Of a stretch of DNA of 23,343 nt, positions 2,093-20,905 are shown piece by piece. The number at the start of each line of letters is the position of its first letter. The stretch's first letter is position 1. The position numbers were made by a program, and so were the translations under genes. The DNA is from an uncultured Nitrososphaerota archaeon (lineage in GTDB: Archaea; Asgardarchaeota; Njordarchaeia; Njordarchaeales; Njordarchaeaceae): NCBI GenBank assembly GCA_964518475.1, contig CAZFGR010000025.1:1-23343 (forward strand). The letters run 5' to 3'. The notes under the pieces were generated by a model. That model worked only from the letters and a program-made list of their open reading frames with translations. It ran no database searches and was not told the DNA's origin.

Positions 2093-2301
2093 TTTCTCCG
2101 GAATCTTTTCCCAAATTTATTCTAATGTAAAGCTTTATTCAAAAACATCTTATGAAAGAATCTATACAAAGAAACAAGGAATAGTAGGTTGTTAACCTAC
2201 TATTTCCTATCAATAGTGTTTTCTGTTATTACCTATATTATTTAAAGATAGTTTACGTTGCAATATTTTTGCTCCAGTTATGTAATAGGGGTGTTTTTAT
2301 A

Positions 2302-3324
2302 GTGCGAATCGCGATCATTGGTGCCGGGCCTGCGGGTTTAAGTACTGCTTACAATGCAGCAAAGGATGGTCATGATGTAATTGTTTATGAAGCTGATCCC
2401 TTTGAGAAAGTGCCCTCGAAACCTTGTGGAGAAGCTATACCCGCGGATGCGTTGAGATATACGCCGTTTACTGAGAGATCAGATTTCATTCTCAATAATA
2501 TTAGGAGTGTAATGTTTTACTGGGAGGGCGAATTTGTACGAGAAATGAGAGACTTCCCCTTAGCAAACGGATACATAATCGATAAAAGAGCCTTTCTAGT
2601 GGCTCTGATGGAAGCTGCCGAAAGCGAGGGAGCTAGGATCTTCTTTAATAAACGCATTCTTTATAAAGACTTACCAAAGCTGGATAATTTTGATATGATC
2701 GTGGATGCCTCCGGTATTGGTGTATTAGGACGATATTTTCTAGATTATAAGAATTACAAGACTATTCCAGTGCTTCAAGCTTATGCCCGTGGAGAGAGTG
2801 TTCCGCCTGATACCATTGTTTTTTGGGGTCTAGAAAGAGGATATGCATGGGTCTTTCCTAGAGGAGATCTCTACAATATAGGCGTGGGCGGAATTAATTA
2901 CTCTTCCCAATTCCTTCGAGAAACCCTTGATAAAGTGCTTGAAAAATTCGAATTACAATTAGTAACTAATATACGAGGAAGCTATGTAAGCGCAGGTGGT
3001 CCATTAAAAAAGCTTGTTAAAGGAAAAATACGTGTTGTAGGAGAGAGTGCTGGAATGGTCATGCCTCTGACGGGTGAAGGTATCAGATACGCGTTGATTG
3101 GAGGTACCATGGTGTATAAGGAGAACTACGAAGAATTATTCGATAACACTATTAGACCTCGTCTCGAGAAAGGCGCTTTATTATTAAAGATTGTTCTCAG
3201 GATCCCTAATAAGGGAAGATTGGCTAAAAAAGCAAGTGATGAGCTACTCTACAGGTTCTTCGAAGGTACTTTCAGTATTAAAGATGCTTTCAAGACTCTT
3301 GTAAAATATATAAGCCTTAAATAA
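2302..3324 (+). CDS. Geranylgeranyl reductase family flavoprotein, short divergent paralog (ORF track start 2269; GTG 2302 preferred)
   Basis: N-terminal IAIIGAGPAG, KPCGEA, VDASG, GYAWVFP and VGESAGMVMPLTGEGI. A GGGGTG SD at 2288-2293 precedes the in-frame GTG at 2302. Confidence 0.88.
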   Translation: MRIAIIGAGPAGLSTAYNAAKDGHDVIVYEADPFEKVPSKPCGEAIPADALRYTPFTERSDFILNNIRSVMFYWEGEFVREMRDFPLANGYIIDKRAFLVALMEAAESEGARIFFNKRILYKDLPKLDNFDMIVDASGIGVLGRYFLDYKNYKTIPVLQAYARGESVPPDTIVFWGLERGYAWVFPRGDLYNIGVGGINYSSQFLRETLDKVLEKFELQLVTNIRGSYVSAGGPLKKLVKGKIRVVGESAGMVMPLTGEGIRYALIGGTMVYKENYEELFDNTIRPRLEKGALLLKIVLRIPNKGRLAKKASDELLYRFFEGTFSIKDAFKTLVKYISLK

Positions 3325-3373: not shown

Positions 3374-4342
3374 GTGAATCATGTAACAAGAGGCGAGAAG
3401 ATGCACAAAGAGAAACAGAAAATACAGGAATTCACTAGTCTTTTAGAAAGATTACGAGCAGAAGTTGATGAGGGTATAAACGAGCTTATTAGCCGAATCC
3501 CATATATTAGACAGTTAGCCGAAAGAGCTTTGCGTGGAGGGAAAAGATTCAGAGGAGTTCTTGTTTTAGTTTTCTCGAGAGCGTTAAGAGGCAATAGTAG
3601 ACTCGCTAAATACTTCGCAGCCATTATAGAATTTATACATGCCGCTACACTACTCCATGATGACTTTATCGACGGACACCAGGTTAGGAGAGGCTTACCA
3701 GCTTTTTGGAAAGAGTACGGTGCTAAATTAGCTGTACTGGTTGGGGATTTCTTATTCACTGCTGCCAGTCAATTCACTAAATACATATCTAATGAAGCGT
3801 TAAGATTTCTAGCCACGACCATATATAAAATAACTCTTGGAGTCTTAATAGAAACCGACCCCAAACTTTATACAAAAGATATTACCAAAGCCTATACTTT
3901 AATGAATAGATTAAAGACTGGCGAACTATTTGGAGCAGCATCTTATCTAGGAGTCCTCTCATCGGGAAGAAGAGAATACCTAAGAAATGCCTATAAGTAC
4001 GGTATCTTAACTGGCGAGGCCTACCAGATAGCTGATGATATTTTTGATCTGAGACTCCTCAAAAGCGGTGTTAGTAATGTTGATCTTAAGCCATTAAAAC
4101 TAGCTATCCTGAGCTTCTGCGAAGATAAATACTCAGTAGATGAGATCTTAGAGATAACGAAGGAAGAGACCTTACTAAGAATTGCTGAAGAGATAAATCT
4201 CGAACAAAAATTGCTTGAGTTAATGGTGAAAAGGATCTATGCTGGAATAGAAGCAATACAGGATCTACCCGATAGTTTTGAGAAGAAAGTTTTGATTGAT
4301 GCTCCAAAAATAATGGTTGATATTATGTTGCGTAAAGGCTAA
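3374..4342 (+). CDS. Trans-polyprenyl diphosphate synthase, predicted medium/long-chain (probable start ATG 3401)
   Basis: GGKRFR, FARM ATLLHDDFID...RRG, AVLVGD, KTGELF and SARM YQIADDIFD. Confidence 0.92.
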   Translation: MNHVTRGEKMHKEKQKIQEFTSLLERLRAEVDEGINELISRIPYIRQLAERALRGGKRFRGVLVLVFSRALRGNSRLAKYFAAIIEFIHAATLLHDDFIDGHQVRRGLPAFWKEYGAKLAVLVGDFLFTAASQFTKYISNEALRFLATTIYKITLGVLIETDPKLYTKDITKAYTLMNRLKTGELFGAASYLGVLSSGRREYLRNAYKYGILTGEAYQIADDIFDLRLLKSGVSNVDLKPLKLAILSFCEDKYSVDEILEITKEETLLRIAEEINLEQKLLELMVKRIYAGIEAIQDLPDSFEKKVLIDAPKIMVDIMLRKG

Positions 4343-4347
4343 TGAAT

Positions 4348-4887
4348 TCATTCTGGAACCGCTTTTAACAAAGTACTTAACAATGCTAAGCCGCCAATAA
4401 ACAGAGCGATTAGCTCGCTAAGCGTTAGAACCACGACAGCTTCTATGTATGACGCGCCCATTGAAAGCCCTGAAAGCTCTGGTGGTGCTAAGAAGACCAG
4501 CTCGTAGCCTATTAACAGACCTATTATCAGGGCACCTATTAATGCCCCAACACCTCCTAGGATTATTCTCAACTCTCTTCTTAGATTAAGTTTCCTTGAA
4601 AACATCCCTAGGTAATAGATCACTAAGCACACCAGTAGATTCGTGACCGGCCCGAATATTAAGTCCCAAGGCTGTATCGGGGAAACTAGATTTGCTAGGA
4701 ATCCTCCAAGCGTTAAACCTATGACAGCACTCTTCCCATACTTCTTATGAAACGGTATAATTAGCATGGCGTCACTTATCCTAATCTGGTTTATCAAATA
4801 GGCAATAGGCATGATCGCATAAGTCAATGCAGTATAGGCGGCAGCAAGTACAGCTACTTTTATCCAAGAAATCTCTTCTGTCATCAA
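4348..4887 (-). CDS. queT: QueT-family ECF S-component (7-deazaguanine precursor transporter family)
   Basis: Motifs AAAYTALT...PIAY..NQIRISDAM, GLTLGGFLANL.SP...WDLIFG and late SELIA, with about 5-6 hydrophobic helices. A GGTGA SD lies on the minus strand at 4891-4895. Confidence 0.85.
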   Translation of the reverse strand: MMTEEISWIKVAVLAAAYTALTYAIMPIAYLINQIRISDAMLIIPFHKKYGKSAVIGLTLGGFLANLVSPIQPWDLIFGPVTNLLVCLVIYYLGMFSRKLNLRRELRIILGGVGALIGALIIGLLIGYELVFLAPPELSGLSMGASYIEAVVVLTLSELIALFIGGLALLSTLLKAVPE

Positions 4888-5295: not shown

Positions 5296-6696
5296 ATGTA
5301 TGATGTTATAATTATCGGTGCTGGGTTTACAGGACTGCTTGCTGGATCTCTTCTCGTTAAGGATGGGTATAAAGTTGCTATTTTCGAAAGAAATAGTTTC
5401 GTTGGTGGCAGAGCCGCTACAAGGACTCCTAAGGAATGGGGATGGGCAGATAGAGAGGATTACCTAATTGATTTTGGTCATCATATTTTCGCTACTAATA
5501 ATTATCTAGAATTCATCTTGGATAGAGTTGGGGCAAAGAAATATTTCAAATTCGTACCTCTTAAAATGCCTTATTTCTACAAGAATGGTAAGTTGCATAA
5601 GCCTCCGGTTGGTATTATTGAGCAAATAAGAGCGTATCCATGGATCTCCTTTGGATCAAAGTTAAAACTTAGGAAGTTTCTGTCATATGTAAAGAAAGTT
5701 TCCTTTAGGGAGGTTATTGAGAAATGGGCTTATAGGCCCTTAAATGATCTCTACGACGAATTCGGTTTCGATGAGAATGCGCGTGAACTTTTCACAGATG
5801 GTTTTGTAGCTGGTTATCAAACAATTACTGATACAAATAGGAACTCTGCTGGCGACTTAATTCTCTGTATGAAAGCCTATCTTAAGGGAATTAAGAAATA
5901 TAAGACTCCAGTATTCTCTGCTGAAGGCGGCGTAGGGAAAATCGCTGAAGCATTACATAGAGTTATTACGGAGAGTGGTGGAGAAGTCCACCTTGAGAAA
6001 AATGTTCAAAAAATTATTGTCGAAAACGGTGAGGCAAAAGGTGTTATGGTGGATGATAAGGTCATAGAAGCAAAGAAAATTCTCCTAGCTGCTCCAGTAT
6101 ACTATCTTCTTGATCTAATAGAGGAGGAAAAAATGCCTGAGGACTTTAAGAAGAGGCTAGAAGAGGGGAAGAAAGAAGCTACAAAACTTTTCCTGATACT
6201 TGGTGGCGCCAAGAAACCTTTGAGAGATATACCAACAGAAACATGGATACTGGTGCCTAGGTCAGAGGTTAAGAAAGTAGAATCATACTACTTGATTTAT
6301 GAAGTAAGTCCAGAGCTTAAGCAGGCCCCCGAAGGAAGATATGTGCTAAGTATTGCTGTTTTACCTAAAGAGGAAGACCTCCGTGACAAGGATGCATTAG
6401 CCAAAAGAATGATAGAGGACATGAGCAACCTATTCCCCAATTTCGACTTTGAGAATGATTGGGACTGGAGAAACGAGGTACTGTTCCCGATAGTTGATGG
6501 AATTGGAAGAACTATTGATTGGTACTGGGAAAAAAGGCTAGGCCCAGAAACACCCATAAAGAATCTATACGTTGCCGGTGATTCTGCTCAAGAATTAAGT
6601 TCAGGAGTAGACGGATGTGCAAGCTCCGCAATATTTGCGGTAGAAGCTATAACTGGAAAGAAATTAATAAACTCGGAAGAATTTTATAAAATCTAG
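5296..6696 (+). CDS. FAD-dependent oxidoreductase of the phytoene-desaturase/amine-oxidase fold, with marked Rab-GDI/REP-like colinearity
   Basis: [43 protein letters not shown], APEG and [18 protein letters not shown] (TATA-like) lies at about 5242 and a GGTG SD precedes the ATG. Confidence 0.85.
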   Translation: [466 protein letters not shown]

Positions 6697-6881
6697 TGTA
6701 ATCTAGTTTTTAATTTCCCCTAATCCACATTTTTATTGTCCTTAACACAAGATATAACCGTGACTCATCCTATCCTTATGCGACTTCGTATTTAATAAGT
6801 AAATACAAAATATTATCATTATTGTTACGTTACTAGAAAAACACTTAGGAGTTCTAGCATCTTCTTATGGAGGGGTTCCTC

Positions 6882-7187
6882 TTGAAAAAGAAGCTAACCT
6901 TAACAGTAGAGGCCGAAACCGTCGAGAAAGCAAAGAAGAAGGCTTCAGAAATAGGTTTGCCTCTATCAAGGATTGTTGAGAATGCATTAAAATTCTTCGC
7001 TGATCCCGAGGTCTATTGTTTCTCTTGCGGACATAGATTTAAGATAGAGACAGCAGAGGTCTGCCCAAAGTGTGGATGGTATAAATGTCCGAAATGTGGT
7101 GCTTGTGGCTGTCACTTAGGTGATGAGGGCGCTAAGGTAGCGTTTTATATGCGAAAAACACTTGTTGAAATCTTCAGTAGAGCGTAA
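6882..7187 (+). CDS. Ribbon-helix-helix (DUF6364/CopG-like) DNA-binding protein fused to a Cys-rich Zn finger (ORF track start 6867; TTG 6882 preferred)
   Basis: KKKLTLTV beta-strand, then EAETVEKAKKKASEIGLPLSRIVENALK helices. The C-terminus CFSC...CPKCGWYKCPKCGACGCH has 8 Cys plus His. A GGAGGGG SD precedes TTG 6882. Confidence 0.8.
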   Translation: MKKKLTLTVEAETVEKAKKKASEIGLPLSRIVENALKFFADPEVYCFSCGHRFKIETAEVCPKCGWYKCPKCGACGCHLGDEGAKVAFYMRKTLVEIFSRA

Positions 7188-7242
7188 ATCTCTATGTAAG
7201 TGATTTTTGGTTCCTTAGCATCTAGACGATTGTTTCGAATAG

Positions 7243-7983
7243 GTGCTGGAGAGGATCCGATTGCTTTTAGAGATTATTAATCTAAGAGTTGTTATGGATA
7301 GCAGAGAGATTCTTAAGGACATTTCGCTCCGTTTTGAGGGGCCTGGTCTTTATTTTATTCTAGGTCCCAATGGTAGCGGGAAATCTACGTTACTAAGAGC
7401 TATGGCTCAATTAATAGATTACGAGGGATCCGTCATAATTAATGGTAGGGATGCTAAAGAGTTTAATAGATTGGAGCTTGTTAGAACCCTTGGTTATGTT
7501 TGGCAGAACCCCTTCTACGGATTTTTTGAGGCTTCTGTTAAGCGGGAAATATCATTTATTCTGAAGAACATTGGTGAAAGCCTTGATAAGATGTATAAAT
7601 TGGTCGAATTTTTCGGAATTCAAGACCTACTAGAGAGATCCCCCTTCACTCTGAGCGGGGGTGAGGCGAAGAGAGTTTGTCTCCTAAGCGTTTTGGTCGC
7701 TGATCAATCTATACTTCTACTAGATGAGCCAGAAACCGAGCTTGACTTAGACGGCCTATCCAGACTTATCCAGTATCTTAAAGAAAACGTGAATTCTAAA
7801 CTAATTATTGTTGCGACTCCTAATCCCTTGCTAGCGTATAAGCTAAGGACGTTGCTTCGAGGAATAGTGCTAATAAAGGATGGTCAAATAGTCTCTGTTG
7901 GAGGCGTTGAATTGCTTGAAAATGATGGATTACTTATAGAAACGGGGATCGTACCTATGAGGTGGTGGTATGAACCTTCTTAG
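7243..7983 (+). CDS. ecfA: ECF-type ABC ATPase (A component; probable start TTG 7261)
   Basis: Walker A GPNGSGKST, Q-loop VWQNP, signature LSGGE and Walker B LLLDEP. It overlaps the downstream T-component gene. The H-loop His is replaced by Pro. Confidence 0.88.
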   Translation: MLERIRLLLEIINLRVVMDSREILKDISLRFEGPGLYFILGPNGSGKSTLLRAMAQLIDYEGSVIINGRDAKEFNRLELVRTLGYVWQNPFYGFFEASVKREISFILKNIGESLDKMYKLVEFFGIQDLLERSPFTLSGGEAKRVCLLSVLVADQSILLLDEPETELDLDGLSRLIQYLKENVNSKLIIVATPNPLLAYKLRTLLRGIVLIKDGQIVSVGGVELLENDGLLIETGIVPMRWWYEPS

Positions 7984-8599
7984 ATTCATAGAGCTACAGA
8001 ACATGAACACTCAGCTTCACAGGCTTCCCATACCTATCAAGCTAATTCCATTCTTTATCGCCATTATCATTCCTAGACTAATACCTAATAAATCATTAGT
8101 AATGATTATAGAGCTCTCACTAATTATCTCATGCGGCTTAATCATCAGTGCGTATCTGAGAGCCCCTAGATACTTCCTCGATATTATTTTGACCTTCTTA
8201 CTCTTATGGATTTTCTTGTCCATTCTCTACCTCCCCTCAGTGCATCCTATCCTATTCTTCACAGTGTATATTGATCAATTGATCTACTGGATCAGTATTG
8301 CGAGCACCTTTGTGTTGTTTTTATCAACTACTAGCGTGTCTCAAGCGGAGAATTTTCTGGCGAGACTAGGAATTCCGTATAAGTATTCACGAGTACTAAT
8401 CGTAACGTATAACTTGATACCAGCTCTTTACAACGAAATTAAATTAATCACGATGACGCAGAAGGCTAGAGGACTACAATTCAGTAGGAATCCTCTAAAA
8501 AGAGCTGTCCAAATGATAGCTATCCTGATGCCGTCACTGTTCATAGCACTCCTAAGAGCTGAGATATTGGAGATAAGTATAAAGAGCAGAGGCGGTTAA
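7970..8599 (+). CDS. ecfT: ECF transporter T component (EcfT/CbiQ family)
   Basis: Hydrophobic N-terminus, FLSTTS...LARLGIP, and two X-Arg-Gly coupling motifs (TQKARG, IKSRG). Confidence 0.88.
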   Translation: MNLLRFIELQNMNTQLHRLPIPIKLIPFFIAIIIPRLIPNKSLVMIIELSLIISCGLIISAYLRAPRYFLDIILTFLLLWIFLSILYLPSVHPILFFTVYIDQLIYWISIASTFVLFLSTTSVSQAENFLARLGIPYKYSRVLIVTYNLIPALYNEIKLITMTQKARGLQFSRNPLKRAVQMIAILMPSLFIALLRAEILEISIKSRGG

Positions 8600-8614: not shown

Positions 8615-9757
8615 TTATAAGAGCTTTCTTAGTCTAGTAGATAAATACTTCATGACAAGTTCATATAACCTCTTCTTCTCCACTAATACATCAGCAAAAT
8701 CCCTAAGAAAATACTCATAACCTTTCTGTAAAGTACTGGATCCCTTTTTAAGCAAGTAATCAATAAGAATTCTCTGAGCCCTTAATTCCCAAGAGCATCG
8801 TCTCCATAACTTTTCATACCTGAGAAGATTCTTTATCGAAAAATCATTTCCGTTAAAACTCTCAGCAAGAATCCTTCCAGTCAAGAACCCTGCCCTTATA
8901 GCTAAGTGAATTCCAGCCCCAGTCAAAGGCGCTACTTGATGAGCAGCATCCCCTACCAATATTGCTCGTCTCTGTACTAATTTTTTAACCCCTCCAGAAA
9001 GCGGTACCAAGAAGGATTCCCTTCTAATAATCTTATTTTGAGTCATATTGTTCTTCTTGAGAATCTTCCTGATATAATACTCTGGTTGCACCCCCTTAGA
9101 ATATTTCATTAGATACCCTACGCCTACGCGAAAATGATTTATATGAGGGAATACCCAGGAATATCCTCCCGGACTATATTCTTTACCATAGTAGAATTCA
9201 TTGATAGAGTCTGTAGTCTCTGGATCCTTGTCAACCCACACCTGATAAGCAACCCCAAAATCCCCTAGATTCAAGGATGTTTTGAAAATTTTTCTCCTAA
9301 CCAGAGATACTGCACCATCAGCTCCTACAACAATTTTAGCTCTTATTTCCTTGGATCCACGAATCCTAACAGAATCCTTCTCCATAACAACATCTCTTAC
9401 CAAAAAACCGGTCTCAACGTGTATGTCTATCCGATCTAAGTATCTCATGAATAGATGAGATAACTCTTCCCTGCCAATATTCTTTGCCACGGGTTCTTTG
9501 AACCTTATTACTTTGTCAATATCTCTATAAACAATTCTAATACCTGTGATGAAAATCCCCGGCAGTCTTGTTACCTCCGGGAGGAGACACTGAGCGGGCC
9601 AGAGAACCATTCCTCCACAGGGCTTATTACCCAGTCTCTTATCCTTATCCACAACCAATACTTCTAGATCATTTCCTCTTTTTCTAGAGTAGAGATGTGT
9701 AGCAAGGGCTGTTGATAAGCCAGCGGGTCCAGCACCAATTATTGCTATATCTATCAT
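8615..9757 (-). CDS. Geranylgeranyl reductase family protein (DGGGPL-reductase-like)
   Basis: IIGAGPAG, KPCGG, VGADGA.S.VR, the complete PxxYxWxFP motif (SPGGYSWVFP) and LVGDAAHQVAPLTGAGI. Confidence 0.9.
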   Translation of the reverse strand: MIDIAIIGAGPAGLSTALATHLYSRKRGNDLEVLVVDKDKRLGNKPCGGMVLWPAQCLLPEVTRLPGIFITGIRIVYRDIDKVIRFKEPVAKNIGREELSHLFMRYLDRIDIHVETGFLVRDVVMEKDSVRIRGSKEIRAKIVVGADGAVSLVRRKIFKTSLNLGDFGVAYQVWVDKDPETTDSINEFYYGKEYSPGGYSWVFPHINHFRVGVGYLMKYSKGVQPEYYIRKILKKNNMTQNKIIRRESFLVPLSGGVKKLVQRRAILVGDAAHQVAPLTGAGIHLAIRAGFLTGRILAESFNGNDFSIKNLLRYEKLWRRCSWELRAQRILIDYLLKKGSSTLQKGYEYFLRDFADVLVEKKRLYELVMKYLSTRLRKLL

Positions 9758-11484: not shown

Positions 11485-12219
11485 TTATTTCAGATCCGTT
11501 ACTTTTAATGCCCTCTCATAAGTGTTGTATATTGCTTTAGCGGCTTCTCTAATTCCTTTCCTCTCTTCTTCGGTTAGTGAGTCCCATATGTCTGGGCCTA
11601 GACTTCTACCAATTCTTGCAGGAATCGTTACATAAACAGGCTCTGGTGTTTCATCAAATTTTCTTAGTCTAGAGTAACTTAGGACACGACCTGTGTTCAA
11701 TAAGATACCTCTAATTATTTCTAGGAAAGATCCTGCGGGACCCCACCTAGTCCCTCCAGTAGCTCTTAAAATCTCAACACTTATTCCCTTAACATACTTC
11801 TCTACTTTCTCTCTATCAAGCGTCTTCCCAGTCTCCTCTAGATACTCTTCCAAGGGCTTTCCGTAGATATGGACTGTGCTCCGGAGAAGTACGGCTACCT
11901 CTCTGTGTTCTCCACCGACGTAGGCCTCTACAGCACTTACTGGGACTCCTAACTCTCTAGCAATTATTATTCTGAATCGTGAAGTTTCGAGATTGGTGCC
12001 AGTACCTATAACTTTTCTCTTTCCTTCTAAAACTCTATTAACCAATGTCGTCATAGCATCTACTGGATTTGTTATAACGAAATACCAGGCATTAGGATTA
12101 TTATCCCTAGTGGCTTCCGCAACTTCCTTCATTATTTCAGCATTCTTATCAGCGAGATCTCTCTTACTCATTCCTGGTTTTCTCGGATAACCAGCACAAA
12201 TAATTTTTAATTTTTGCAT
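11485..12219 (-). pseudogene. 5'-truncated lactate/malate dehydrogenase family gene
   Basis: Retains AG.PRKPGMS, VITNPVD, VIGTGT.LETSRFR, GEH and TRWGPA. It lacks the N-terminal GxGxxG Rossmann segment, with no room before the next gene, and carries substitutions at conserved sites. Confidence 0.82.
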
Positions 12220-15736: not shown

Positions 15737-18700
15737 TTAAGTCGAGGGGTTTCTGATTCTGGAGAAGATTTTCTTATATAACGTTCTTAGCTGTGGGTCA
15801 AGTTTCTTGTCGGATAAGACGTACCGAATTATTTTTTTCATTATTTGTTTATACTTCTGAGCTCTAGCACGCTCACCTTTCTCGGCTAGTAGCTCTAGCT
15901 TCTCTAGCGCCAGTACTAGTTTATCATAAGCTGATCGGTAATCGTGGAGAAAAGCGTTTAATCTTGCCTCTAAAATAGTCATGTCACAAATCATTCTTGT
16001 CAACGTTCTTTCATTAACTCTGTCTCTGACCGATTCAATTATCTCCCGACACTCATCTATACAGTTCCTTACAGTATCGACGTCGCCTTCTCCGAAGTAC
16101 TTCATGATAGCTTTCATCGTTAATAAGTCAAATTTAGCTAGCTGTATCTTTAAGAGCTTATCTTCATTTTCCGAGAATTTCTCCTCAATCTGCTTAATGA
16201 GAGATAATGCATTCTCCACCGAGGAATAGGCTTTTTCAAATTGAGCGCTTTTCCACAACAAGTCAGCCTTTAGAATCACTGCCTTAGAGAAAAGCCTTAC
16301 AAGGAACTCGAAATCTTCGACAGTATCCGATAGTATTAACTGTGAAATCCTCTCAACGATAATAGTGAAATCTTCTATAAGCTCTTGAGAAAACTCATTC
16401 ATTAACTTCTTCTTCATCTCCTCAGCGGTGCTAAGGAAGAAGCTTATTAACTGCGAATCACGCCACTCTATCTCATCAAGCAACTGTCGCATGACTAATC
16501 TATATTTCCTATAGTACTCTTTTGTAATTTCTTTATTCGCATCTGCGTTCATCAAACATGCCTCTTGGAGGGCTCTAGAGTAGTATATCTTGTACTTCCT
16601 TATCGGTAAGGTCTTGACGAGTTCATCACCGTATTTCACAGCGTCCCTTATTATCTTAGCTGCCTCTTCTCTTCTGCCAGATCGATAGAGGGTTCTCGCA
16701 ATGTTTGTCTGAGCCATTGTTAAGAGGCCCAAAATATAGCTGTCTCTCGACTTGCTTAGATACAGAGCTCTTAAACCATGATCCAGAGCGGTCCTAAATG
16801 CTTCATAAGCTTCTGAGAATTCGCGCTGCCTTAAATATATCTTTCCAAGACTATAATACAGTTGCGCATAGATAGTTACCAGTAATGGGTCTTTGCTCTC
16901 CTTGGCAATATCTTCTAAAGCATCTATTCCATCTCTGAAAGCTCTGATAGCATCCTCACTCTGTCCCTTCTCATTTAATCCCTTGCCAAGGACGATATAC
17001 CCTCGACCCATAAAGTATTTCTGAAAAACTCCACCGCTACCTCGCAAGTCTCTTAGAGCCTCATTTACGATCTCGATCGCTTTGTCCGCCTCACCACTTT
17101 CTAAGACTGTGTGGGCGATTCCTACTTTAGCACACGCTTTCCAGGAATCTTCTTTAGCGGAAGATATTCTGTAGTTCAGTGCTTCAGTAAACCACTTAGA
17201 CGCCTCATCTATCCTATCTAGTCTAATACCAATCTCACCCAACAGTACATAGCTCTTCAAAATTACTTCGCTACTCTCCTCGCTTTTCAATACTTCCACG
17301 ATCTCTAAGAAGTTCTTTATAGCATTATCATAATCACCCATCCTTAAGAATAGTTCACCAAGCAACGAGAGAGACTCTGCTTTGAGGATTCGTTTCTCAC
17401 TCTCTGGGAGCTTTTCACAGATTTTTAAAGATTCTTCAAGTCTTGATCTCGCTCGATCATAGTTACCATTAAGAATCTCTAAACGACCATATTCCTGAAG
17501 AACCCACGCTATGCCCTTTAAAACTCTGGCATCACCCTTAACTTCCTCACTCAGTTTTTGAAAAAGCTTATAGCTCTCTTCTAGAGCAGAGAGAGCGTTT
17601 TTTGTCTTATTCAAGCCTACAAAAGCATCTATTAGCAATTTATACGAGCGTATAAGTGCATTCAACTTATCTAATCCTTTATACCTAGAGTAGTCTAGAT
17701 ATAGGCGATAATACTCAATGCTTGTATTGAAATAGGTTACTGCCTCTCTATCCCTGCCTAAGTGAATAGAGCACTCACCAAGCATTCGATAGATTTCTCC
17801 AAGATCCTTAAGGATTCTGAGATAGTACCAGCCCGCCCTGTTTATTACTTCCCTATAAAGCACGCTGCTTCGATCAAGTAGCTCTGATGCCTTCTCAAAA
17901 TCATCACGAATAAAGAAGTGTTCACCTACTTCCTTAGCAATTAAGGCTTTTCTAACTAATACACCTGTTTCGAAGTCCCTTTCGTCGTTTAGTGAGAAGT
18001 TTAGGGCGGTAGTGGCGGTTGGTAATAATTCCTGTCCTTCTCGCGTTTTCTCTATCCTTATCCGCAAAAACAGTGCTGATAAGTAATGGAGGACATCCCT
18101 AAGAGTAATCATGCTTAGTGATGAATGAAGGTTGAGAAGTTCTTTTAATGCATTCTCAGCCTCTATCGTGTTTCCATCCTTAAGATATCTCCAAGCAGCA
18201 TTAATTAGGAAGGAAATCATGTTCCGGGAAATAGTCTCTGCAACATCTTTATCCTCTATAGTCCTTGACACGTCTAAGTAGAGCTTTTCTACATCATTAA
18301 GTATGGCAGAGTCGATATTGCTGCTGTAGCGTATTAGGAGGGAATATGCTTTAATGATTTCACTGATTATTAGTGGGTCTTTAAGACCAGCATAATCAAT
18401 TACTCTTTTCAGTAACTTTTCTCCGTCCCCAATATTACCCGCTCTCAGGAATTTCTCAGCGGATATGTTTAGTGCCTTAAGCAGGTATAGTGGTCTTACG
18501 TGAGGAGACGAAATTATTTGCGATAAGTCATATTTATCTAATCCTAGCCATATATCGAGTATTTCAGCATTCATGATCTCTAATCCAGCAACATTGTTCT
18601 CTAGCCTAAAGATATTCCTAGTACGTAAAGAGTCTATCAATTCTAGCAGATCAAGGATCGCACCATCTGAGAAGAAGTTTCTGAAGTACTGGGAAAGCAT

Positions 18701-19987
18701 TGATATGGCCTCATCCTCATTCAGAAATGCCTTAGCACTAATTAACTGCTCTAAGTAACGCACATCTCCTGTTTCCATATACAACCTTTCCAGATTTTTA
18801 ACCAAGTTATCCGCTACTACCTTTGCCTTATCCATAGATAAGATATCCACAAACTCTTGTCTAAGGGCAAAAATACTTCTTCCTAAATCTACGGGCTCTA
18901 CAATAGCTGATGAAATAATCTTTTCCAATAATTCCTCCTTACCACTTAAATCAACAAGTTTGGGAAAATCACTCAACTCAGTCTTATATAATAGATATAA
19001 TGAGGAAAATAGTTCCTGTAAATCCCCACTAATACGCTCCTTCAAAACATTCTTTACATCATCAATAGACTTAAAAGAAGCCTTGTCGCTTCCCAACATA
19101 TCAACTACATCAAGGACTAGAGAAGCATGAATAGGGAGAATCCTATCAGACTTTAAAAGAGATTGAAAAACTTCTAGTTCTTTAACCCCTCGCTTTGTAA
19201 GGTACTCGCGTAGCTCGTTTCTATCAAATCCATTAAGAGAAATTATCTTCAAGCTAGAAGAATTTATTAATTCGTTAAGCTTATTAGCCACTTCCTCATT
19301 CCTAGTAGCGATAACAATAAGAACGCTAGGTAATGCATGAATAAACCATGAAAGTGGTTCCAATTCATCAATATTGTCTAGGGAATCGAGGATTATGGCT
19401 AATGAGATCTCTCTCTCCTTAATCTCCTCTGCAATGTCCTGGGCCAAAGCTAGTGGGAGAAGATACACGAGCTTATGGATAGGAGCTTCCTCTAACGTAT
19501 CTGTGATCTCTAGTTGAAAAGTCTCGGCACTCTTCTTTAACGCATAATAACTCTTCGGAAAAGATGCTAGGAGATAAATCTCTGGAAACATCGGATCCTC
19601 ATCACTAATATCTTGGAGATCGTATTCGAGCACTTTTCTCCTTATCTCATACCACAACCCAGTAAAATTTGGTGCGTTAAATCCGTATTCATCCGATAAC
19701 CTGCTCTGAATCAAATGGAGAGCTCTTATCCAGGAAGACACGTCTTTTAGATTAACATAGAGGTGGAGAACCCCCAATGGCTTTATCCTTGTCTCAATTA
19801 CATAGTTGAGGAACCAGGTTTTCCCAGCACCTATTGGCCCCATTACAAGCACTACCTTTTTACGTCCAAGAGTAGTGTACTCATCGAATGCCTCATCAAA
19901 CGAGTTGAGGGCTTCTCGGTAACCAGTAAATAGTTCTGAAACCCTTCTAATGTATCCTTCAGTTATTTTCTCAGACACAACGCTCAA
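15737..19987 (-). CDS. Large STAND-class P-loop NTPase with C-terminal TPR array
   Basis: Pre-Walker FTGYRE, Walker A GPIGAGKT, Walker B AIILDSLD, sensor VIATR and LNGFD...YL. Multiple TPR-like units follow (LGELFLRMGDYDNAIKNF, LGKIYLRQREFSEAYEAF). A GGAGG SD lies upstream. Confidence 0.85.
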   Translation of the reverse strand: MSVVSEKITEGYIRRVSELFTGYREALNSFDEAFDEYTTLGRKKVVLVMGPIGAGKTWFLNYVIETRIKPLGVLHLYVNLKDVSSWIRALHLIQSRLSDEYGFNAPNFTGLWYEIRRKVLEYDLQDISDEDPMFPEIYLLASFPKSYYALKKSAETFQLEITDTLEEAPIHKLVYLLPLALAQDIAEEIKEREISLAIILDSLDNIDELEPLSWFIHALPSVLIVIATRNEEVANKLNELINSSSLKIISLNGFDRNELREYLTKRGVKELEVFQSLLKSDRILPIHASLVLDVVDMLGSDKASFKSIDDVKNVLKERISGDLQELFSSLYLLYKTELSDFPKLVDLSGKEELLEKIISSAIVEPVDLGRSIFALRQEFVDILSMDKAKVVADNLVKNLERLYMETGDVRYLEQLISAKAFLNEDEAISMLSQYFRNFFSDGAILDLLELIDSLRTRNIFRLENNVAGLEIMNAEILDIWLGLDKYDLSQIISSPHVRPLYLLKALNISAEKFLRAGNIGDGEKLLKRVIDYAGLKDPLIISEIIKAYSLLIRYSSNIDSAILNDVEKLYLDVSRTIEDKDVAETISRNMISFLINAAWRYLKDGNTIEAENALKELLNLHSSLSMITLRDVLHYLSALFLRIRIEKTREGQELLPTATTALNFSLNDERDFETGVLVRKALIAKEVGEHFFIRDDFEKASELLDRSSVLYREVINRAGWYYLRILKDLGEIYRMLGECSIHLGRDREAVTYFNTSIEYYRLYLDYSRYKGLDKLNALIRSYKLLIDAFVGLNKTKNALSALEESYKLFQKLSEEVKGDARVLKGIAWVLQEYGRLEILNGNYDRARSRLEESLKICEKLPESEKRILKAESLSLLGELFLRMGDYDNAIKNFLEIVEVLKSEESSEVILKSYVLLGEIGIRLDRIDEASKWFTEALNYRISSAKEDSWKACAKVGIAHTVLESGEADKAIEIVNEALRDLRGSGGVFQKYFMGRGYIVLGKGLNEKGQSEDAIRAFRDGIDALEDIAKESKDPLLVTIYAQLYYSLGKIYLRQREFSEAYEAFRTALDHGLRALYLSKSRDSYILGLLTMAQTNIARTLYRSGRREEAAKIIRDAVKYGDELVKTLPIRKYKIYYSRALQEACLMNADANKEITKEYYRKYRLVMRQLLDEIEWRDSQLISFFLSTAEEMKKKLMNEFSQELIEDFTIIVERISQLILSDTVEDFEFLVRLFSKAVILKADLLWKSAQFEKAYSSVENALSLIKQIEEKFSENEDKLLKIQLAKFDLLTMKAIMKYFGEGDVDTVRNCIDECREIIESVRDRVNERTLTRMICDMTILEARLNAFLHDYRSAYDKLVLALEKLELLAEKGERARAQKYKQIMKKIIRYVLSDKKLDPQLRTLYKKIFSRIRNPST

Positions 19988-20131: not shown

Positions 20132-20905
20132 ATGAATATCGAGGAATTAGAAAAATTATTCAAGAGCAGAGAAATATACTCTCGGGCCAGAATCGACACC
20201 AAATTTCTCCTAGTAAGGTGCGACGGTCGAAATTTCAGAAAACTAGCTAAACAGTTAAGGCTTGAAAGATTCGATAAACGCTTCCACGAAGCATTAGTAA
20301 TAGCCGCTGAGAAATTGATGAAAACTTCCGGATTCGATATAAGATTATCCCACATAGTAAGTGATGAAGTCAGCTTCCTTTTCCACGATATCCCCTTCAA
20401 TGGTAGAGTGGAGAAGATAGATAGTGTAACTTCTTCACTCCTAGCCTCTCTACTCACTATAGAATTAGCGAACCGCTTCAAATTTCAGGAAGGAGTCGCT
20501 TTCGACGCCAGAGTAATAAAGATACTAAACATTGAGGAGATCGCGAAATATATTTATTGGAGACAAAGCGATGCCTACCGAAACTTCCTCAACACATGGG
20601 CCTACGAAGCACTAAGAAGAAAAGGGTTCTCACCAAGAAGAATAGCTAAGATGTTAGAAGGTATGAAGAGTGACAAGTTAAGGGAGCTCATAGAGGATAC
20701 CTTCGGCCCACTCGAAAACTTCCCAGATTGGCAGAAATACGGAACAATAATATATGTAGATTGGGTAAGGAGAAAAGCTCTTAACAAACGAACAGGTGTC
20801 GAGACTTTTGTTGAGAGAAGAAAGTATCGTAAGAAAACTATGAAACACTATGATGAAATCCTAGATTGTATAAGAGTAGCGTTACGAACAAGACACACTA
20901 CATAA
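20132..20905 (+). CDS. thg1: tRNA(His) guanylyltransferase Thg1 / Thg1-like 3'-5' polymerase
   Basis: VRCDGRNF, SDEVSF, PFNGRVEKIDS, FDAR, YIYWRQ.DA.RN and P.WQKYG; the catalytic carboxylates are intact. Confidence 0.95.
   Translation: MNIEELEKLFKSREIYSRARIDTKFLLVRCDGRNFRKLAKQLRLERFDKRFHEALVIAAEKLMKTSGFDIRLSHIVSDEVSFLFHDIPFNGRVEKIDSVTSSLLASLLTIELANRFKFQEGVAFDARVIKILNIEEIAKYIYWRQSDAYRNFLNTWAYEALRRKGFSPRRIAKMLEGMKSDKLRELIEDTFGPLENFPDWQKYGTIIYVDWVRRKALNKRTGVETFVERRKYRKKTMKHYDEILDCIRVALRTRHTT

Follow-up and report, generated by a model that had tools for sequence, protein, structure and literature searches.

A putative FAD-dependent oxidoreductase family, mostly archaeal, as a probable prokaryotic sister of Rab-GDI/REP

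How eukaryogenesis gave rise to the machinery that prenylates and recycles Rabs is still an open question. A locus from an uncultured Njordarchaeal genome bears on it, because a preliminary description of the window (the whole stretch of 23 343 nucleotides that was analysed) had proposed that a 466-aa protein encoded there (5296..6696, + strand) belongs to a sister group of the Rab chaperones GDI and REP that still has its FAD site. Is this protein a true relative of GDI/REP and, if so, does it handle prenyl groups or bind GTPases? Structural kinship of GDI with FAD enzymes is long established (PMC1994686). Surkont and Pereira-Leal (2016; PMC4915359) found weak GDI HMM matches in archaea and named 3NRN as REP/GDI-like, a proposal that drew on fold recognition and on poor HMM statistics and concerned a more distant protein. 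A review table of 2016 has GDI/REP absent from Lokiarchaeum and TACK (PMC4917890), and a study of 2024 found no REP homologue by BLAST (PMC10933270). Searches of openly available articles on Asgard archaea and GDI or RabGDI turned up no account of the sister family, which large supplementary tables may nevertheless hold unremarked.

The 466-codon ORF has no internal stop and is predicted to encode an FAD-dependent oxidoreductase of CrtI/COG1233-like fold. Its N-terminal FAD-binding part (5317..5484, +) contains G8, G10 and G13, E31, G37-G38-R39, an inserted helix at residues 45-48 and D59-F-G-H-H63; the C-terminal FAD-binding segment (6574..6666, +) comprises A427-G428-D429 and the final helix, with a GDI-like terminal motif at its end. 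Across 34 homologues, G8-x-G10-x-x-G13, an acidic residue at 31, G38-R39 and G428-D429 are invariant, so that the ORF and the alignment bear out the original report of intact FAD motifs. From these motifs we predict, with high confidence, an active flavoenzyme, in which the invariant H62, H63 and E336 are candidate active-site residues. The Pfam profiles Amino_oxidase and GDI scored almost equally: PF01593 scored 92.9 bits over residues 11-452, and PF00996 scored 81.8 bits over residues 2-270 (model 5-287 of 436) with a curated cut-off of 23 bits, which unrelated Rossmann starts also exceed marginally. No NCBIfam equivalog came near its cut-off (crtI_fam 56 against 238; HpnE 73 against 283). 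The geranylgeranyl reductases (TIGR02032, DGGGPL reductase) are also FAD-dependent and isoprenoid-related, and two lie nearby in the window, but they form another flavoprotein family: their match to the protein, at 24.7 bits against 580, covers the Rossmann start alone, and their catalytic domain, PF22578, is absent from it.

Identity to GDIs is 21-26%. In HMMER, residues 2-269 of the protein aligned with bovine GDI (1gnd; E 2.5e-15, 59.7 bits), and this alignment contains, in order, the seven N-terminal motif pairs of the preliminary description. An eighth pair, at residues 318-350, fell below the HMMER threshold but was aligned in a profile–profile comparison, which extended to residue 356 (prob. 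99.8, E 1.9e-27). The suggested colinearity along the whole length stands by structure (residues 1-459 against GDI 9-442), but fails by sequence, where residues 400-456 are unmatched. A single-sequence search of the PDB returned M. mazei 3ka7 first (61.7 bits), followed by seven GDI entries; with the family profile, seven GDI entries came top (79-63 bits), ahead of 3ka7 (52), 3nrn (43) and REP (26), the last found via its middle region. The GDI profile detected neither 3nrn nor 3ka7 at E<=10.

The likeness is not confined to the Rossmann motif. A GDI profile without the Rossmann start scored 56.4 bits against residues 51-466, compared with at most 5.4 bits for 1000 shuffles and 4.9 for the reversed sequence; the family median was 41 bits, against 0.5 (maximum 28) for 237 other prokaryotic flavoproteins. 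With the full GDI profile, scores lay at 35-80 bits for full-length family members and did not exceed 36 for other flavoproteins, which owed them mostly to the Rossmann start, and with GDI residues 65-225 alone the medians were 24 bits for the family and -3 for the others (maximum 16). Along the protein the GDI signal is mainly in residues 61-210, is weaker in 290-360 and is absent from 400-456 (median -4 bits). Outside the Rossmann motif, then, the family is GDI-like and can be detected from GDI by sequence alone. The hhalign scores to GDI were 207 for the family, 125 for the ordinary COG1233 clade and 107 for a sister clade described below; the family matched ordinary COG1233 over its full length with a score of 440. 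For these comparisons the GDI/REP set consisted of 32 eukaryotic GDIs recovered from metagenome contigs and four REPs. Sixteen GDI-consensus columns are common to the family and rare elsewhere, and three go the other way. A terminal I-T-G-K-x-L-like motif, defined post hoc, is found in 32/39 family members, 21/32 GDIs and 3/137 others.

These results could in principle be explained if the protein were an ordinary COG1233/3ka7-like oxidoreductase whose GDI likeness reflects slow evolution, with ancestral states retained, or a tree artefact, with GDI/REP belonging elsewhere in the superfamily. 3ka7 and 3nrn are indeed its best whole-fold matches, and over its whole length the family profile ranks bovine GDI (79 bits) behind more than 130 prokaryotic flavoproteins (82-128 bits). 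However, that ranking stems from the FAD segments that GDI has lost, and in the reverse direction, with the GDI profile, nothing approaches the family. Furthermore, insertions near residues 45-48 and 204-207 that are common to the family and GDI are missing from 78-91% of other flavoproteins. We consider this explanation improbable, and the sequence comparisons indicate that the family is distinct from, and much closer to GDI than, the 3NRN-type protein of PMC4915359.

ML trees (IQ-TREE, LG+C20+F+G4; alignment columns corresponding to residues 1-360) grouped GDI+REP with the family and its sister clade. Support for this grouping was SH-aLRT 89 in a quick 105-row tree, 97/84 (965/1000 bootstraps) in a careful 72-row tree and 100/94 in a second tree, for which the aligner mode and most of the outgroups were changed. 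The stem that leads to GDI/REP is long (1.1). When the long-branched sister clade was left out, GDI+REP still grouped with the family (100/99), and attraction between those two long branches is therefore not the cause. That the grouping survives another aligner, other outgroups and long-branch removal argues against the artefact invoked above. In favour of an ordinary oxidoreductase, AU tests rejected the alternative placements weakly and indecisively (p 0.05-0.09): p was 0.049 with GDI/REP forced onto the ordinary COG1233 clade, and 0.065 and 0.094 with GDI/REP forced onto 3ka7/3nrn-like proteins, for which P0167 stood in (it matches 3ka7 at E 1e-37 and 3nrn at E 1e-32). In none of the ML trees did the protein nest in ordinary COG1233/CrtI clades no closer to GDI/REP. 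Profile scores suggest that GDI/REP arose within the family, to which the sister clade would be external; the trees favour the family together with the sister clade over that option (AU p 0.048; 92/79 in the second tree). Within an outgroup pool mostly picked by likeness to the family, with thin bacterial sampling (Chloroflexota, 14 control genomes and the best family-profile matches) and four REPs, this small, mostly archaeal family and its six-member sister clade are in our judgement probably the closest sampled prokaryotic lineage to Rab-GDI/REP.

The trees also bear on whether a eukaryotic GDI gene was transferred to archaea, or the contig is a contaminant, for which the patchy distribution of the family might speak. 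GDI and REP form a clade with 100/100 support, and the 466-aa protein lies outside it, as sister, which effectively refutes such an origin. The protein also keeps FAD motifs lost in both GDI and REP and matches COG1233 end to end, its neighbours are archaeal, and the closed chromosome of Thermococcus sibiricus carries a member. We attach virtually no weight to transfer or contamination.

An AlphaFold model of the protein, which may lean towards solved GDI structures, had a pLDDT of 92 and a pTM of 0.91. With the whole model, Foldseek tied GDI and 3ka7 at E 1e-29, whole-chain Z was 37.6 for 3ka7 (rmsd 2.5 over 399 residues), 35.0 for 3nrn, 32.8 for plant phytoene desaturase and 31.8 for GDI, and Atlas look-alikes reached TM 0.84-0.85. 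The helical domain II (residues ~105-203; 5608..5904, +) is the counterpart of the GDI domain that holds the geranylgeranyl group. Folded alone, its top 12 Foldseek matches were GDIs (TM 0.65-0.75), followed by REP, with 3ka7 at 0.45. Its VIA Z values, modest for a helical domain, were 10.3 for plant phytoene desaturase, 9.3-9.5 for GDI/REP (rmsd 2.8-3.0 over 116-119 residues), 5.0 for 3nrn and 4.8 for 3ka7. The model thus joins an enzyme-like domain I to a GDI-like domain II that superposes on domain II of GDI. The preliminary proposal of a GDI/REP sister group with an FAD site is supported by reciprocal profiles, genome surveys, three ML trees and this superposition.

With GDI/REP (PF00996; 1gnd, 1ukv, 1ltx) the protein shares the two-domain fold, colinearity over residues 2-356, short insertions and a domain II with TM up to 0.75, as well as individual residues: K122, which aligns with the invariant GDI K137 (bovine numbering), P104 (P120 in GDI) and a T-P/S-P before the SCR3B helix. 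In yeast GDI, Lys145 presumably shapes the lipid cavity. Unlike GDI/REP, the protein keeps the third Gly, G-G-R, D-x-G-H-H and the C-terminal G-D with its helix, and carries an additional segment of two helices near 268-293; in GDI, Glu replaces the third Gly, and Pro-Lys stands where the family's D-x-G-H-H has its two His. 3ka7 and 3nrn (P. furiosus PF1083) share with it the FAD motifs and an alignable C-terminal half, and are its closest whole structures, but match domain II poorly, and in the ML trees their relatives lie apart from GDI/REP. Phytoene desaturases and their relatives act on linear polyprenes. These enzymes (PDS 5mog, CrtI 4dgk, CrtD 4rep, HpnE, carotenoid isomerase) share its FAD fold and likewise have a helical domain for the substrate, and domain II of plant PDS superposes as well as that of GDI, but NCBIfam scores are far under cut-off and no carotenoid or hopanoid genes lie near the gene.

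A homologue search yielded ~40 clusters at 44-81% identity, after which E fell from 1e-125 to 1e-22. Named members come from Njordarchaeia, Asgardarchaeia, an Odinarchaeota-labelled MAG, Thermoplasmata, Thermococcaceae, Thermoproteota and Dehalococcoidia; that of T. sibiricus, a cultured organism with a closed chromosome, is WP_015850235.1 (77% identical). Searching 1.84 billion representatives with the family profile added a deeper member, P0122, and the six-member sister clade (170-250 bits), ordinary COG1233-like proteins beginning at 126 bits. Beside one sister-clade protein, P0130, a 610-aa roadblock/LC7 gene (L242:3736-5568) lies 31 bp upstream on the same strand, which suggests an Asgard-like host.

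Over ~1,200 genomes, each strong full-span match to Pfam GDI that was examined (57-82 bits, model 4-288) proved to be a family member, and the remaining matches were partial and scored <=31 bits. Strong matches occurred in 3/301 Asgard, 1/301 Thermoproteota, 3/251 Thermoplasmatota, 1/251 Chloroflexota and 2/121 Thermococci genomes. We rejected a pan-Asgard eukaryotic signature protein, as the GDI profile found 3/301 Asgard genomes, many of them incomplete MAGs, and the sister-clade profile found the same three. A search of viral contigs for the GDI motif found none. In one Thermococcaceae MAG the family gene has an in-frame stop (L031:5992-7392, G304), and in other Thermococcaceae it is divided in two (proteins P0392 and P0393); it is intact in T. 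sibiricus. It therefore seems dispensable there. The rare and patchy distribution suggests an accessory enzyme whose gene may have spread by transfer between anaerobes of sediments and vents.

Does the protein retain, or anticipate, the Rab-binding function of GDI? The helix equal to GDI SCR3B, the Rab-binding platform, is encoded at 5929..5982 (+), where K215, E218 and R222 face GDI E233, Q236 and R240. Together with Y39, these GDI residues are required for Rab binding (PMC2185574). They align with V36, K215, E218 and R222, of which only R222 matches. Throughout the 34 homologues the GDI identity at E233/Q236 (E or Q) occurs in none, and the R240 position is K/R in 30. The SCR1A signature G-T-G-x-x-E is likewise unmatched, with G13 in 34/34 homologues and E in all GDIs. 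Judged by sequence, the protein is not a GDI proper: three of the four Rab-platform residues are missing, and the carriers are mostly non-Asgard.

A true archaeal proto-GDI, binding the Rab-like GTPases of its host, would nevertheless be in keeping with several observations. By GTDB the host is an Asgard archaeon, with eight Rab/Ras-like small GTPases in its genome (L197-L204; 73-173 bits), the R240 position is indeed R here, and an interaction of this sort was predicted by Surkont and Pereira-Leal (PMC4915359). However, none of the ten Ras-family matches of the source genome ends in Cys, in agreement with published Asgard Rabs (PMC10933270), and the residues at GDI Y39, E233 and Q236 are V, K and E, the last two positions never having E/Q in the family. 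A small-GTPase-type neighbour was seen in one case only, the roadblock protein. Besides its 3/301 Asgard genomes, the family occurs in Thermococcus, Thermoplasmata and Dehalococcoidia, which are not known for Rab-like expansions. We therefore regard this explanation as very unlikely, and Rab binding by the protein as unlikely in general. Scarcely more credible is a living proto-GDI in Njordarchaeia that predates Rab prenylation, combining a geranylgeranyl-type chain in the domain II pocket used by GDI with contact to the host's Rab-like GTPases by way of the helix that later turned into the Rab platform. That the protein has the same prenyl pocket as GDI without GTPase binding is a tentative but more realistic prospect. 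Two of the eight host GTPases have long lysine-rich helical C-terminal tails. A GGTase-like prenyltransferase beta subunit was sought in the host and rejected, the PF00432 matches being large, with N-terminal hydrophobic segments, and wrong by size.

Prenyl handling had been proposed from the neighbourhood of the gene, with a prenyl synthase and two geranylgeranyl reductases (GGRs) within ~3 kb. The genes are as described: a polyprenyl diphosphate synthase (3374..4342, +) lies 954 bp upstream, and geranylgeranyl-reductase-family flavoproteins (2269..3324, +, and 8615..9757, -) lie ~2 kb to either side. A divergent gene for a QueT-family membrane protein (4348..4887, -) on the opposite strand separates the synthase from the flavoprotein gene, which are therefore not one operon. 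A prenyl synthase was found near the family gene in 1/31 loci, namely this one, and a GGR in 2/31; the argument from neighbourhood consequently fails, and a conserved operon with either gene is ruled out. QueT may belong, together with the ECF ATPase and EcfT genes that follow a small DUF6364/ribbon-helix and zinc-ribbon protein at 6867-8599, to a single ECF transporter whose genes lie on both sides of the flavoprotein gene. Further along the window there are a malate/lactate-dehydrogenase-like ORF (11485-12219), seemingly without its N-terminal nucleotide-binding start and possibly truncated, and, judged by eye, a STAND/TPR-like protein of 1416 aa that combines an N-terminal P-loop with long helical repeats (15737-19987) and a putative tRNA(His) guanylyltransferase of Thg1-like appearance (20132-20905).

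Most family loci have no isoprenoid neighbour, and ~31 loci show no conserved operon. A polyprenol/phytol-kinase-like membrane protein adjoins family members in three lineages (L033:5323-5985, L044:5094-5753, L193:6077-6754), these being Ca. Njordarchaeum guaymaensis, where the genes are co-oriented with a 3-nt gap, a Thermoplasmata MAG and the contig of P0025. The Atlas groups this protein with polyprenol/phytol kinases (score 0.94-0.96), it has no Pfam or NCBIfam match, and of the three copies the third has diverged (E 3e-4 against the second). At about one such gene per genome, adjacency would be expected by chance ~0.02 times in the sample, a link that was noticed post hoc. The source genome (2.3 Mb) has one homologue, on contig C7, unlinked to the flavoprotein gene. 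Archaea are known to have geranylgeraniol kinase activity, and ferredoxin is the electron donor for some GGRs (PMC9385802). In five related Thermoplasmatota MAGs, which represent one event, a 4Fe-4S dicluster gene (272-aa ORF) lies directly upstream and co-oriented, and its product is a possible electron partner of the flavoprotein. P0122 is surrounded by genes for a thiolase, DUF35/OB, MaoC and acyl-CoA synthetase. Taken together, the kinase adjacency, the 4Fe-4S gene and the P0122 context favour isoprenoid salvage or catabolism, on which we would put an even wager. One member adjoins a membrane protein that by eye resembles ICMT/PEMT-type methyltransferases (L032:1511-2080), and an Rce1-like protease lies two genes from another (L241:8691-9404); both families are common in prokaryotes, and these adjacencies are therefore possibly due to chance.

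The protein might instead be a sister of GDI/REP and yet act on a non-isoprenoid substrate, such as a fatty-acyl or steroid side chain, an amine, an aromatic or a porphyrinoid, the prenyl pocket of GDI having arisen later from a generic cavity. Amine oxidases, porphyrinogen oxidases and further oxidases also belong to the flavoprotein superfamily. The lack of a conserved operon is compatible with such a substrate, the thiolase/MaoC/BKACE context of P0122 fits general acyl-CoA catabolism, and the names of the Atlas look-alikes are mixed, protoporphyrinogen oxidase among them. On the other hand, the sole gene family that adjoins members in three separate lineages is polyprenol-kinase-like, and the best characterised neighbours of domain II, GDI/REP and phytoene desaturase, bind linear polyprenes. 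We consider a non-isoprenoid substrate rather unlikely, and see the chances of prenyl handling by the 466-aa protein itself as evenly balanced.

Our preferred reading, which we hold with moderate confidence, is of an FAD oxidoreductase of CrtI/COG1233 type that is the closest prokaryotic kin of GDI/REP among the lineages sampled and acts on isoprenoids. Domain I would hold FAD non-covalently, and helical domain II would form the walls of a hydrophobic cavity in which, at the membrane surface, a linear isoprenoid chain is accommodated, perhaps a prenol such as geranylgeraniol or phytol, or a lipid-derived chain. The flavin would give hydride to a C=C bond or take it from one, resulting in saturation, desaturation or cis–trans isomerization, and in these anaerobes ferredoxin would probably regenerate it. 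The enzyme would be likely to serve the salvage or breakdown of isoprenoid lipids. The ancestor of GDI/REP may have come from the lineage of this family, losing its flavin contacts, keeping domain II as a prenyl pocket and gaining the Rab platform. The findings point to an archaeal source for GDI/REP; an Asgard donor is unproven because few Asgards carry the family, which has passed from one lineage to another. The transition from enzyme to chaperone is thereby made testable, in particular whether the prenyl pocket is older than Rab binding and what the ancestor catalysed, and the family offers a testable stand-in for the enzyme ancestor of the GDI/REP chaperones.
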